The notes beneath the pieces were generated by a model. That model made no database searches. It was given only the letters and a program-made list of their open reading frames with translations, and was not told where the DNA came from. From a phage, in sequence record PZ212788.1: 64,000 bases of DNA; one strand, written 5' to 3'. Below are positions 10,382-63,278 of this stretch, piece after piece. The first letter of the stretch is position 1. Every line of letters begins with the position of its first letter. Both the position numbers and the translations under genes were made by a program.

Positions 10382-13300
10382 TGCCAATTGCAATGATTGA
10401 TAACATCGTTGCTTCTGCAAGATCTTCAAGTTATGACTGGAACGCATCCAAGGCAGCTCTGGCTGACAGCCTGAACACTGTTACCACCAGAACTCTGGAT
10501 AAGATTTTTGAGGGCAACAAATCTTACAGAAGTCAGCAAGATAGACAAAAGCTTCTCAGATCTTCTGCTGCACCTTGCTCTGTAGTGTATGGGAAGACAC
10601 GCACATCTGGATTACTTGCGTTTTTGGAGCAGGACAGGGACAGGACCCTCCATTGTGCTATTGTTCTTGCCAATCATCCCCTGGAAGGTATAGAAGATAT
10701 ACTCATCGACGGTAATCCTATTTCCTCGTATGGAGATTTGATATCGTGGGAGCTACATAACGACAGAAAAACATCTGATCCTTTCATGGGTACACACTGC
10801 CCGTCGTGGTCACCAGACATGATAGGTAGAGGGATCAGTTGGCTACGTGCCAGCTTCAGGTTTGACCCTAACAAGTTCCCTTTTGGGTTGCCAAACGTTA
10901 CACTCGTCAAGGTTGGTAAAAAATGCTATGATCCTCGTATCAGTAAAGAGGTGTATACCAATAACGCGGCCTTGGTGATTCTAGACTATTTAAGAACGTA
11001 CCTTAAATGTCCTGACGAAACCATCAACTGGGAGTCCTTCAAGGAGGCTGCTAACATATGCGATGAGGCGGTAAGAAACGCGGACGGAACTAGTGAGCGC
11101 CGTTACACCATTAATGGTGAGTTCGATATGGATGAGGCCCCAGCAAGTATTATGGCAGAAATGCTGAAAGCTTGTGGTGCAGATCTCAGCTATGTAGCTG
11201 GTAAGTATGGACTGCTGGTAGGTGCATATTATGGTCCGGCAACAATGACACTGAGTGAGGACTGTGTCTGTGGTGAGGTTAAGATCTATCCGGAAGCCTC
11301 GTTTGACAAAAGATCCAACACAATAACTGGCAGATTCACCAGTCCGACTAAAGGGTATTCTGAAACAGATTTTCCATCAGTATTTGTCCCAGAGTGGATA
11401 GAGAAGGATGGAGAAAGAAAGATAATCGATATAGACTACCGCTTTGTTACCAGTCCTTACCAAGCTCAGCGTGTTTCTGCAATCTTCTTAAGACGTGCTA
11501 GAGCTGGCAGGATTATTGAAGTCACCTGCAATATGCGAGGTTTTAAATTTAAGCCTGGTAGTTACGTTACAATGGACCTTCCAAGTATTGGTATAGTGGG
11601 CCAAGAAATGAGGGTTCTTGAGTGGGAGTTCACTAAAAAGGGTGGTGTTAAGGTAAAACTTCGCCAAGATGCTAAAGAGTGGAATGATGCCACAGGGCAA
11701 CTTCCTGATTCCGGCGATGTAGATATTCCGATATCCCCGTCCGGTGTAGCTCAACCGCAAAACTTCAGATACTCCGTTCTCCAAGCTGGGGAAGTAACTC
11801 ACGGTGTTTTGGCTTGGGACAACGTTGGAACTTACGCTCAAAATATTGTGCAGGTAAGAAAGAACGGAGAGATTGTTTGGACAGCACAGACAGTTGAGCA
11901 GTTTGTCCGAGTAGAAGGCTTGACCAAAGGGTCATACACAGCAACCGTGGTTGCAACATCTTATAAAGGTGGTGTATCTCCAGAAGCCTACTGCGAGTTC
12001 AACATTCAAGCACCTGAAGCTCCTGTTTCTGTAGAAGTTAAGCAGGGATACTTTGCTATCACCTTGATTCCGCATAGTAGGGATTTAGCAAGTGTTAGCA
12101 CCCAGTATGACTTTTGGACATCCGGTATGACAAGGTTGCCAGACACCAGTGATGCAACCGTTACTTCAAAAGCCACCCGTATGGGTGTTGGTTCAACTTG
12201 GACATCTGAAGGTCTGCAGAACGATAAGATTTATTATTGGTATATTAGAACCACAAACGCTTTTGGTAGTTCTCAGTTTGTAGAATGCGCTGCACGCTGC
12301 TACACCTCTATTGAGGATTTGATGCCTCAGATAGATGCTGAATTCAAAAAGACAGAAACTTATAAAGAGTTGATGAGTACTTTGGATTCCTCTATTGAAG
12401 AGGTTGAAAATCGTGTCACAGAACTTAACAGGTACATGGATGGTAGGGTAGATGAAGCGTTCCAGCAACTTGGGGACAGAATAGGTGCGGTAGTTACAGA
12501 AACAACTCAGAAGTTTGAAGATGTCAATGGTAACATTACAGCGCTGGATAGGAAACTTGTTGCTGCACAGAACAAATTCACCAACGATCTGAACACTGAA
12601 AGTGGCAGACTGGCATCTCTGATCGAGACAACCAATAAAGCAACTACTGATCTTCTGAACAAAAAGACAGAGGCTTTAGATGAGAAATTGGTTGCCGCCA
12701 AAGGTGAGCTGGTAGAGCAGATAGAGGGAGTTGAGAGCGGGTATTTAGCCGGAGATAAAACTCTGGATGGTAAGATCAATACTCAGAGAACAGAACTTGA
12801 CGCAAGCATCTTGAGCACTAACCAGGCAACTGTGGATCTTTTGAACAGGACATCTGAAACTCTGGATCAAAAGATCAGTCAGACAAACGCGACGGTATCT
12901 AAAAACTATACCACCCTGGATGGCAAGATAACCACCGCAAAAACTGACCTCAACACCTTGATTGCCAATACCAACAAGGCCACCACTGACTTGTTGAATC
13001 AGAAAACATCTGCACTGTCAGAGCAGATAACTTCTGCACGTGGGGAGATTTCTACCAACAAGCAGGCGATTGATGCTTTGGATGGAAAACTGACTTCCAC
13101 AAAAACAGCGCTGGATGCTACAATTTCCGATACCAACAAAGCTACTGTGGACCTTATCAACGGCACAGCGTCAGCTATTCGTCAAGAACTTGCTGTTGCT
13201 AAGCAGGAGATCATTGATGATGTTGGGGATGTGTCCGAAATCAGGGCTGCAGTAGCTACAACATCTAAGGCTGTAACCGACTTAGAGGGTAAAGTAAATG

Positions 13301-61600: not shown

Positions 61601-61790
61601 GCTTAAATCTGCATGGAACATCGCTGTGGGGGACGAGATCCGTATCCCAGGTGGAAAGACCATTATGAAAATATCTCGTATCGAGTACGAAGGTGATCGT
61701 GTATTTCATATCTTTGCAGAAGATGGTCGAGAGATTTATATACAGGCAGGATCTCACATCTATATTCGTAAGAAAGAGGAGGACAAATGA
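61593..61790 (+). CDS. hypothetical protein
   Basis: Start trimmed to ATG 61593 (AAGGAAGG RBS). Confidence 0.4.
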   Translation: MFKLKSAWNIAVGDEIRIPGGKTIMKISRIEYEGDRVFHIFAEDGREIYIQAGSHIYIRKKEEDK

Positions 61791-62116
61791 CAGAGATCAT
61801 CATTTCAACTGCAGGGTATGTATTCCTGACAATCATTGCACTGGCTATTTTGGTGACAGTGTATGGGTTTGTTATCCTTCCTATCCTTGAGACATTTAGT
61901 TTGTGTCGGTGTTGGAGAAAAGCTTACGGTCCACAACCATGGAAGGACTGGCCCCACCTGGTGCGCTTAGCGTTCTCTTATGCTTACGATCACTCCAGTA
62001 GTGCATGCATAACCGGATACCACGCCCACAACTGGAGCTGGGAAGGGTTGAGGAAATGGAATGTTACAAAGACCATACCTCTGCGCATGTACAAACCTAA
62101 AAACAAAGACAACTGA
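61787..62116 (+). CDS. membrane protein
   Basis: N-terminal hydrophobic helix AGYVFLTIIALAILVTVYGFVILPIL; GAGGAGG RBS. Confidence 0.45.
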   Translation: MTEIIISTAGYVFLTIIALAILVTVYGFVILPILETFSLCRCWRKAYGPQPWKDWPHLVRLAFSYAYDHSSSACITGYHAHNWSWEGLRKWNVTKTIPLRMYKPKNKDN

Positions 62117-62640
62117 TACTTGAAAATTCCTGGCATATCAAGTATAAGGGGGATTTCTAAAATGGATTTCCTCCTTTTGATATTTCACCGGGCTGGATAT
62201 TTTAAAATTCTTAGAAAATCAGAAAATGGATCGAAAACTAAAATGGATTTTTCAGAGTAGGCGCGACAAGCTGAATAACTCATCCTATCGTTTGCACCAT
62301 ATTCCAGGCCACCATTATAGATTTCCCACACATGCTAACCTCTCTCTACTAGAACTTCCTCCACTTACCCTTGACCTTCTATGGTAACAATCTAACCGCT
62401 ATCTTGAAGTTGCGGTGCAGCTTTCCAGGTACTCGATCTACTTTTCATTTCAGGGCTTGGATTTTCTGAAAATTTTTCTCGATAAATTTCTCAGTACTCG
62501 ATCTGTTTTTCGTTTTCTGAATCGGATTTTCTGGAAATCGTTCCGGCTCTCAACCTGAAATTTTTGGGGACGAAATCGATTTTTCGTTTTCAGAAATGGA
62601 TTTTTAAAATTTCTATATGGGAATATTTTAGTGGATACTA
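62116..62640. repeat. repeat-dense non-coding region (iteron-like direct repeats and hairpin), candidate origin or terminus
   Basis: No ORF over about 600 bp; AAAATGGAT(T/C) at 62158, 62221, 62238, 62591; ACTCGATCT twice; GGATTTTCTG(A/G)AAAT twice; TTTCGTTTTC(T/A)GAA twice; inverted repeat ATACTTGA/TCAAGTAT at 62116-62145. Confidence 0.55.
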
Positions 62641-62665
62641 TTTTATAGTAAATTGTTACGGAGGG

Positions 62666-62683
62666 TAATTAGCGTGCTAATTA
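62666..62683. promoter_or_regulatory. perfect 8-2-8 palindrome TAATTAGC-GT-GCTAATTA (operator-like)
   Basis: Read directly from sequence; lies about 40 bp upstream of the first Fur-box-like site. Confidence 0.35.
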
Positions 62684-62720
62684 AATTTATTAAATGCGAG
62701 GAGTTCTCATTTAGAATTTT

Positions 62721-62735
62721 GAATGATAATCATTC
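62721..62735. promoter_or_regulatory. Fur-box-like palindrome GAATGATAATCATTC
   Basis: Perfect 7-1-7 palindrome; core AATGATAATCATT identical to the centre of the enterobacterial Fur box GATAATGATAATCATTATC. Confidence 0.5.
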
Positions 62736-62851
62736 TCGTTTGCAGAATAACGGGCAGGCCCGGTGATTGTCTCCCGGCCCCTGTTGCCCCGGCTTGTTAT
62801 TATAGTATCACACAGGACAAAGAAAGCAAGGATTTTTTGCATAAATTTTTA

Positions 62852-62866
62852 AATGATAATGATAAC
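62852..62866. promoter_or_regulatory. second Fur-box-like element AATGATAATGATAAC
   Basis: Tandem GATAAT/GATAAC hexamers, preceded by TTGCAT at 62837-62842; followed by TTCTC..TTT..TGCAG as after the first element. Confidence 0.4.
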
Positions 62867-63278
62867 CGTTCTCATTTTATGCAGCGCCCATCCCCAGTGG
62901 TTGTCTCCCCCGTCACCGGTGCCTGCCGTCCTTTCGATAGGTATATTGTGCCACCTGGCGGGGCCGCTGTCAACACCTTTCAAAAAAAAAAAATTATAAC
63001 CAGGTGCGCCCACTGCCAGGACCTGGCGGGGGAGAGTGAAAGCTTGCAAACCTGGTAGGGCTATGCTATAGGGTAGGCAACAACTGGAGAGGAGGTACAA
63101 AAATGAAAGGTAATATAATCCCCTGGAAAATGTAGCGACTAATGACGCTGAGGCTATCGCCATGGTTGAAAAGGCTATGGCGGGAGCGTTGGAACATAAA
63201 GAAGAGTACGAAAAAATGGTGGTTAACCTGGCGGGGGCGGCAGGTGGATTCTATCATAAAAATAATTTAAAATAGTCG

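Follow-up and report, generated by a model that had tools for sequence, protein, structure and literature searches.

A conserved non-coding repeat array in Vequintavirus genomes as a candidate cis-acting protein-binding site

The 64,000-nucleotide stretch of phage DNA analysed here (record PZ212788.1; hereafter the window) belongs to a Vequintavirus, that is to say an rV5-like myovirus with a genome of about 136 kb. Directly 3′ of open reading frame (ORF) 200, which encodes a small membrane-type protein, and ahead of the ORF198–164 series, the window carries an ordered array of AT-rich repeats. An earlier note had singled out 62116–62640 as an ORF-free, repeat-dense candidate replication origin, packaging site, or terminus. 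This region forms the left-hand two-thirds of a non-coding cis-acting unit of ~0.9 kb (about 62160–62990), in which the array is followed by two operator-like boxes and predicted facing promoters. The repeat families occur once per genome, keep a fixed order, are retained despite protein divergence, and lie beside meltable DNA; thus, the array is best seen as a core cis-acting nucleoprotein site. It is an ancient element of the Vequintavirinae whose order is fixed, and it belongs to no characterised family. We tentatively prefer to read it as a cis-acting protein-binding and unwinding site that may serve as a transcription-activated replication origin. The promoter activity, factor binding, and replication role proposed below are predictions from the features, uniqueness, statistics, and conservation of the sequence and from the order of its parts across genera.

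The rV5-like and related phages are widely used in biocontrol and therapy. The rV5 paper describes a T7-type replisome (PolA and a gp4-like primase-helicase) and a skew analysis that sought an origin and found none. The literature on ICP1, T5, rV5, Certrevirus, and the BASEL collection yielded no account of the array. What had been a vague gap with repeats now has coordinates as a subfamily-wide element composed of a three-unit array, operators, and facing promoters.

Layout and conservation of the array in Vequintavirus

The stretch 61700–63400 matches 122 phage records at 80–99% identity. The array region itself (62100–62660) matches 117 Vequintavirus records, 116/117 over at least 80% of its length. 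Phage EdH4 is 100% identical to the window phage across the whole of this region (EdH4 11670–12230). Whole-genome motif counts were made on a ~135-kb composite genome of the window and EdH4, and within-genus comparisons on an alignment of ten diverse Vequintavirus members. A search of E. coli chromosomes for a host source of the array DNA gave no match. An exact-pattern scan of IMG/VR with a 16-mer from block A returned loci that were chance matches in 31/32 cases, the only true relative being L025.

The array consists of block A, a variable spacer, and block B, and is followed by the AT-rich minimum and the operator and promoter modules (Table 1). The earlier note counted four copies of AAAATGGATY. 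Three are exact (62159, 62223, and 62240), and these are the only three in the 64-kb window, where 0.38 would be expected; the fourth is a variant, GAAATGGATT, at 62593–62602. The duplicated GTACTCGATCT, GGATTTTCTGRAAAT, and TTTCGTTTTCWGAA blocks are all present in the stretch that the note had singled out, and the 8-bp inverted repeat with a 14-nt loop is perfect, with arms ATACTTGA and TCAAGTAT at 62116–62123 and 62138–62145. The array motifs are confined to this region in both the window and the composite genome; for TTTTCNGAA and GGATTTT, the in-region shares in the composite genome are 3/4 and 4/17. The idea of an iteron-like binding array survives in this form: a conserved, non-coding, AT-rich repeat array, probably functional and of a protein-binding kind.

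Table 1. Coordinates of features in and around the repeat array, with mean identity within Vequintavirus
Feature	Position	Strand	Mean identity	Description
ORF200 coding sequence	61787–62116		90.9%	
Inverted repeat at ORF200 stop codon	62113–62148			Weak fold, −7.6 to −9.8 kcal/mol
Block A	62159–62255	+		GATATTT at 62179 and 62196; AAAATGGAT at 62159, 62223, and 62240
Block A, core	62196–62255		96.5%	
Variable spacer	62256–62425	+	72.4%	C-rich and G-poor on + strand; purine-rich on − strand
Block B	62426–62640	+	93.7%	Tandem units 62426–62490, 62491–62564, and 62565–62640
GTACTCGATCT repeat	62429 and 62494			
GGATTTTCTGRAAAT repeat	62459 and 62524			
TTTCGTTTTCWGAA repeat	62508 and 62582			0.03 expected
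Palindrome ATTTTCTGAAAAT	62461–62473			Perfect 6-1-6 palindrome, unique in genome
TCGATAAATT	62479–62488	+		Perfect match to H-NS high-affinity motif, by sequence match alone; in unit 1
Terminator-like hairpin	62560–62605	+		16-bp AU/GU-rich hairpin (62560–62597), then GGAUUUUU; terminator-like for rightward transcripts
AT-rich minimum	62596–62695			GC 23%, lowest 100-bp window of 64 kb
Stretch right of array	62701–62980		97.2%	
Operator boxes a and b	62693–62711 (a, degenerate) and 62722–62740 (b)			Cross-genus consensus AATGAGAAT-N-ATTCTCATT; Fur-box-like
Predicted rightward promoter	62719–62748	+		TTGAAT-N18-CAGAAT; box b fills the spacer
GC-rich dyad	62752–62796	−		Conserved core GGAGACAATCACCGG; between the facing promoters
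Predicted leftward promoter P_L1	62799–62829	−		TTGCTT-N19-TATAAT; faces the rightward promoter
Second module	62855–62976	−		Box 62855–62873; GC dyad 62884–62930; predicted promoter P_L2, 62973 to 62945

Block B is built of three units of the form GTACTCGATC..TTTTTC..GGATTTT..AnTn with 65- and 78-bp spacing, and BLAST picked up its internal repeat in every relative. Weaker copies of the ATTTTCTGAAAAT palindrome lie at 62526–62538 and 62587–62596. The loop of the perfect copy is too small for an RNA hairpin, so this palindrome would act as a DNA site. The H-NS high-affinity motif, published by Lang et al. (2007; PMC2094087), has its sole perfect copy in the composite genome at TCGATAAATT. The AnTn runs of the array show a weak 11-bp periodicity (2% of shuffles). 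The genome's lowest-GC 300 bp (62437–62736) fall partly within the array, and 62595–62694 is the second least stable 100 bp genome-wide.

Blocks A and B are better conserved than the adjacent ORF200 gene and stand on either side of the variable C-rich spacer (Table 1). The core of block A is nearly invariant, with 55/61 columns unchanged among the 10 genus members. The spacer occurs as three haplotypes of constant composition (C about 0.30, G 0.12–0.15). Its 62295–62372 segment has 30 C versus 5 G, the top C/G ratio in the 64 kb, and the purine fraction of 62266–62565 on the + strand lies 5 standard deviations under that of the remainder of the gene block. All haplotypes resemble rut sites in composition alone, being untranslated, C-rich, and G-poor over ~80 nt. 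RNAalifold, run on the spacer for the minus strand only, gave no supported structure (covariation term −2.15, many broken pairs). The hairpin at 62560–62597 has a folding energy of −15.9 kcal/mol on the + strand (z −1.9) versus −8.6 on the − strand, and a G-to-A change in FV3 leaves its pairing intact. At the ORF200 stop codon, Mangalyan and slur16 have a different dyad in place of the inverted repeat, which is broken in FV3. In YP-6, an extra 214-aa gene (L006:461–1105) lies between ORF200 and block A. This insert takes the place of the stop-codon hairpin and the first AAAATGGAT, which puts the start of the indispensable part near 62196.

With regard to coding, the description of the region as ORF-free was right in that we found no credible gene; ORFs of 32–53 aa do exist, in frames that are not conserved. 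In a six-frame comparison, the frame was changed among relatives by a T5/T6 run, and stops were found in Mangalyan, slur16, and YP-6. Variable sites fall on the three codon positions as 11/13/15, that is, without phase, compared with 18/11/46 in ORF200. Because no reading frame is conserved, the region is non-coding, and the non-coding stretch runs on to about 63100, past the 62640 limit given in the earlier note. It is thus very improbable that the array encodes small proteins corresponding to ORF199 and ORF198 of rV5-type annotations. Such a reading can draw on the coding sequences annotated here in some records and on a Shine-Dalgarno-like AAGGGGGA 8 nt upstream of the ATG at 62162. However, the records disagree (ORF199 in rV5, Gotham, and FV3; other ORFs in EdH4 and Mangalyan; none in navn, JEP1, and YP-6), the frames shift or stop between relatives, and third-position bias is absent from the region and weak in ORF198 (4/5/10). 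The public ORF199 calls accordingly lack a conserved frame, and the neighbouring ORF198 calls are still ambiguous. A scan of the region with Rfam covariance models gave only chance-level matches (E ≥0.65, far below gathering scores).

Operators, facing promoters, and homologous arrays in other genera

Two tandem ~135-bp modules (62693–62830 and 62855–62976) lie to the right of the array, each composed of a Fur-like box, a GC dyad, and a predicted leftward sigma-70 promoter. Each module also faces a weak rightward promoter. Boxes a and b do not vary within the genus and are also conserved in six further genera. Box b agrees with the Fur consensus in 15/19 positions (match listed at 62719) and the second-module box in 16/19, rising to 17/19 in rV5, FV3, YP-6, and navn; shuffled sequence yields 0.17 Fur-like sites at ≥16/19. 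The segment 62726–62741 (ATAATCATTCTCGTTT) is identical in 16/16 bases to the Fur operator/promoter of E. coli K-12 fhuA (L046:186–201); FhuA is a phage receptor, and the identity may stem from mimicry, capture, or convergence. The hexamers and spacing of the predicted rightward promoter are kept in GAP31, BIS47, PBES02, Hena1, and phAPEC8. P_L2 (TTGACA-N17-(TG)CACAAT, with the extended −10 TGgCACAAT) scores 10/12, a strong promoter, and is the sole strong minus-strand promoter predicted from 41 to 74 kb. The dyad core GGAGACAATCACCGG has three copies in the genome, at 62763 (−), 62897 (−), and 72064 (+) of the EdH4 extension, and in each case the dyad folds better when read on the same strand as the promoter upstream of it.

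A sensitive search with 62640–63000 retrieved 264 records from many genera and hosts, with an operator/promoter core of 70–88% DNA identity. The core is present in Seunavirus (GAP31, 4MG), Mydovirus (BIS47, KNP2), Certrevirus (PBES 02), Henunavirus (Hena1), Serratia and Enterobacter phages, Phapecoctavirus (phAPEC8), and an Aeromonas Plateaulakevirus; hosts include Klebsiella, Cronobacter, Erwinia, Serratia, and Aeromonas. It comprises the two boxes, the rightward promoter spanning box b, the GC dyad, and the leftward promoter ~85 bp away and facing it. The promoter scan independently found the leftward promoters of GAP31 (TTGATC-16-TATTAT) and PBES02 (TTGCAA-17-TATATT), and those of BIS47, Hena1, and phAPEC8 were recognised by eye.

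In every genus that carries it, the array lies just left of the boxes and facing promoters. Its order in the other Vequintavirinae genera is (i) three to five copies of GATATTT, (ii) copies of AAATGGwTTT, (iii) the spacer, (iv) three units, and (v) the boxes. The units, 63–78 bp apart, take the form CTCGATC..TTTTTC..(GGATTTT or CGTATTTT)..A(n)T(n). A nhmmer profile made from Vequintavirus block B alone (model length 215) matched GAP31 over model positions 3–210 (E 2.1e-12), PBES 02 (E 5.8e-10) and Hena1 (E 2e-6) over near full length, and BIS47 partially (E 1e-5), and the alignment of block B across genera is collinear. For block A, the nhmmer comparison across genera was not significant (E 0.14), and the likeness is visible by eye. 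The terminator-like hairpin and the C-rich skew are not evident in other genera. Since the terminator, H-NS, and C-rich features were not seen there, they are probably later additions in Vequintavirus. In phAPEC8 (L047:1240–1450), the CTCGATC units are replaced by three copies of a different repeat, AAAATTTAAAGTTT; Phapecoctavirus retains GATATTT, the TTATCTCAAA repeats, and the boxes, so that the three-repeat layout persists with changed sequence.

The flanking genes differ by genus, with a DNA ligase gene adjoining the array in GAP31 and BIS47. A tblastn search with ORF200 found no relatives outside the genus, and one with the small minus-strand genes on either side of the element in GAP31, BIS47, and the Aeromonas phage found no homologue in the window phage. 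The boxes hold constant in phages of widely different hosts, yet the protein genes next to them are not conserved, which suggests that they are bound by a conserved host factor. To judge from the box sequences, Fur is the obvious candidate and the most likely one.

Possible functions of the array

Under the preferred reading, the short AT-rich repeats (GATATTT and AAATGGATTT), the spacer, and the three units would form a nucleoprotein assembly site. The leftward promoter, duplicated in Vequintavirus as P_L1 and P_L2, would be gated by an operator-bound host factor, most likely Fur. Leftward transcription would then enter the easily melted array and activate or prime DNA replication there, as in T7 and T4. 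The Vequintavirus array may additionally carry signals that halt rightward transcripts, namely the C-rich Rho-loading-like tract and the hairpin with its U-tract.

Of the known kinds, a transcription-activated origin like those of T7 and T4 is the best fit, and we prefer this reading for that reason. Further points in its favour are the 2–5-fold enrichment of GATC sites in the arrays of three genera and the DNA ligase gene beside the array in GAP31 and BIS47. The primary origin of T7 consists of the tandem promoters phi1.1A/B and an AT-rich tract, and ori(uvsY) and ori(34) of T4 consist of a middle promoter and a DNA-unwinding element. The array is similar to these in that tandem predicted promoters, P_L1 and P_L2, are aimed into 62596–62695, among the most meltable DNA of the genome (an arrangement also predicted in GAP31 and PBES02), in that no initiator gene is adjacent, and in that the replisome is T7-type. 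It differs in its host sigma-70 promoters with operator boxes and in its large ordered repeats, which T7 and T4 origins do not have. The array shares with iteron origins such as lambda ori and plasmid oriV the presence, in single copy per genome, of tandem direct repeats beside an AT-rich unwinding tract. By contrast, its units measure 65–78 bp rather than about 20 bp and have no known cognate initiator; the lambda-like arrangement in this phage genome sits at another locus, EdH4 96.2 kb. As in Fur-repressed E. coli promoters such as that of fhuA, a 19-bp palindromic Fur-like box (15–17/19 of the consensus) overlaps a predicted promoter. Unlike fhuA, the element belongs to virulent phages, its half-sites are GAGAAT/ATTCTC, one symmetric change from GATAAT, and boxes also lie downstream of the leftward promoters; Fur binding is a prediction. 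Face-to-face promoter switches are found in P2- and 186-type phages. The module resembles them in having two convergent predicted promoters <100 bp apart, one of which carries operators, whereas the phage is virulent, has no adjacent repressor gene, and in Vequintavirus carries the module in tandem duplicate.

Several results weigh against an origin at this site. No initiator gene lies near the array, whose neighbours encode small proteins of unknown function, an endonuclease VII, and a phosphatase. DnaA boxes (TTWTNCACA) are absent from 62000–63200, and the 13 found genome-wide are not clustered here. The array lies inside a long co-directional rightward gene block (unit 10-1-238-164 in the naming of the rV5 authors) rather than at a strand switch. 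Comparison of GC and AT skew left and right of the array gave no origin signal: GC changes from 44.8% to 42.5% and GC skew from 0.129 to 0.074 across it, and this shift is uninformative because it is not in the direction expected of an origin. The predicted rightward promoter is weak, scoring 8/12, below the scan threshold, and RNAalifold found no consensus hairpin for the GC dyad across genera on either strand. The purine-rich transcript and terminator features are Vequintavirus-specific, and GATC sites, which are enriched 2–5 times in the arrays of three genera, are not enriched in Hena1 and only weakly so in the window phage. In the literature on the phages named above, we found no replication or transcript data for this phage group. 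Finally, a more classical origin candidate lies outside the window at EdH4 96.13–96.32 kb. The interval 96.13–96.74 kb (L012:22130–22741) contains three 21–22-bp palindromic iterons (GTGTCCGTATCACGGACAGTTA) together with a large palindrome and the genome's least stable tract, and the site adjoins a gene for a 116-aa helix-turn-helix (HTH) protein assigned to PHROG 12838 'replication initiation protein' (Pfam HTH_36 below threshold). This gene, ~84 kb from the array along the linear genome, is the only replication-initiation match; most records call its product a transcriptional regulator. The iteron motif of the 96-kb site is absent from the array region. By tblastn, the HTH protein, like its site, does not extend beyond the genus; the array, in contrast, spans the subfamily. 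The array, the 96-kb site, both, or neither could be an origin.

A possible alternative, nearly as likely as an origin, is that the array serves as a transcription-control hub, or as an insulator, separating two early units. Upstream rightward transcripts would be stopped by the C-rich Rho-loading tract and the hairpin with its U-tract; the units and AnTn runs would form a bent region bound by H-NS, Fis, or a phage factor upstream of the first operator-controlled promoter of the terminal early block; and the facing leftward promoter would cause promoter interference in the style of a face-to-face switch. The top C/G window of the 64 kb, with its composition kept across haplotypes, the + strand specificity of the terminator-like hairpin, and the single perfect H-NS motif fit this scheme, as do the operator within the conserved rightward promoter spacer, the facing promoter ~85 bp away in all genera, the shift in base composition across the array, and the sigma-70 promoter predicted before every downstream gene. 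However, the three-unit array extends to other genera in which neither the rut-like skew nor the terminator hairpin was seen; a 0.6-kb ordered set of several repeat families far exceeds the needs of known promoter upstream regions; the phasing of the AnTn runs is weakly periodic; and strong promoters lie on both sides of the array, so that promoter classes are not separated by it. Another reading, which we regard as unlikely, is a leftward untranslated purine-rich RNA of about 0.7–0.8 kb, running from P_L1/P_L2 to the dyad at 62148–62113 and acting in trans or as an antisense RNA. Its predicted promoters are strong and conserved, with leftward promoters in other genera too; the strands are reversed in composition, as would suit a minus-sense transcript, which would be C-poor and hence a poor Rho substrate; and a U-rich run follows the dyad on the minus strand. 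Yet the Rfam scan and the spacer covariation lend it nothing, minus-strand folding of the units is no better than that of shuffles, palindromes with 1-nt loops are DNA-level sites, and the purine skew is genus-specific.

Distance from the genome end bears on two further readings. T5 has an injection-stop region, Repeat Region 3 or iss (Davison, bioRxiv 10.1101/866236), and the array might by analogy be a DNA-entry checkpoint marking the inward limit of about 30 small early genes, which form a terminal block and would be the first to enter and to be expressed; we consider this improbable. The array lies 11.2–12.2 kb (8–9%) from the EdH4 physical end, to which the genes beyond it point, and many Phapecoctavirus records show the homologous region in that orientation too, 9–13.5 kb from a record end. 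Similarly, the T5 iss is untranslated over ~1.2 kb, rich in nested direct repeats and palindromes, better conserved than neighbouring ORFs, and located at 7.9% of the genome, and a high daunorubicin sensitivity is common to Vequintaviruses and T5-like phages. By contrast, the paired DnaA boxes expected in inverted repeats were not found in the array, which lies outside any long terminal repeat (459 bp versus 10 kb in T5); either end could be the first to enter, and GenBank record starts are often arbitrary; early-type promoters lie left of the array too; and two-step transfer has not been reported for this phage group. That the region is itself the genome terminus, a terminal repeat, or a terminase (pac/cos) site, as the earlier note had offered, is hardly tenable. 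Its DNA is repeat-rich, AT-rich, and non-coding, and the nearby Fur-like motif GAGAAYNNNTATCATT occurs twice in the 459-bp terminal repeat. However, Korf et al. defined the ends of EdH4 from reads and reported a 458-bp terminal redundancy; the EdH4 record, linearised at these ends, has an exact 459-bp repeat at both, the nearer one about 11.7 kb right of the region and beyond the window, and no array motifs lie near the genome ends. Because the physical ends of EdH4 lie elsewhere, the region is not a terminus or packaging site. The rV5 paper states that the genome is circularly permuted, in conflict with the EdH4 ends; we prefer the direct evidence from EdH4. The placing of the region after the last early gene also needs correction: small same-strand genes with sigma-70 promoters go on for ~11 kb to the genome end, and ORF200 is therefore not the last of them.

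Apart from these alternatives, a speculative scheme can be drawn for the Vequintavirinae and their relatives, which we hold to be doubtful. Host-Fur-gated face-to-face promoters may switch transcription into an array that serves as an origin or DNA-entry checkpoint, coupling replication or the early programme to host iron; or amplified Fur boxes may titrate Fur and so de-repress iron uptake for the iron-dependent ribonucleotide reductases of the phage. If true, virulent phages would read or manipulate the iron regulator of their host.

Minor observations in and around the region

The homopolymer at 62982–62993 is A12 in the window (a T12 tract upstream of P_L2 when read on the minus strand) and ranges between A6 and A13 in relatives, which also differ by large indels in 62991–63100. 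GC-rich ACCTGGCGGGG occurs at 62953, 63021, and 63226, one copy lying inside the P_L2 spacer, and the related GCCAGGTGG lies in a promoter spacer near the genome end. A third GC dyad (GGCAGGC..GGGAGACAATCACCGG..GCCTGCC) is located on the + strand at about 2210–2254 of L010 (extension 72044–72087), just after a terminator/promoter and ahead of a promoter with this P_L2-like GCCAGGTGG spacer. The two copies of GAGAAYNNNTATCATT in the EdH4 terminal repeat (L010:128–161) are in the window orientation, and the motif is found elsewhere only beside the array region. In 1.4 kb of non-coding DNA by the genome end, a GTTTACA(C) cluster (L010 about 500–590) includes a consensus DnaA box, TTTTACACA.

A small ORF with a strong Shine-Dalgarno sequence (GGAGG) at 63104–63275 is reduced to 10 codons by a C4 run, in place of C5, at about 63118. 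Relatives with C5 retain an ORF of ~57 aa, in which variable sites are distributed as 24/11/17, with no third-position bias.

Among the matching records, 16–18 unannotated 'Campylobacter phage' entries (MG0656xx, host C. jejuni) are 92–99% identical to E. coli Vequintaviruses; they are probably mislabelled, or else contaminants.

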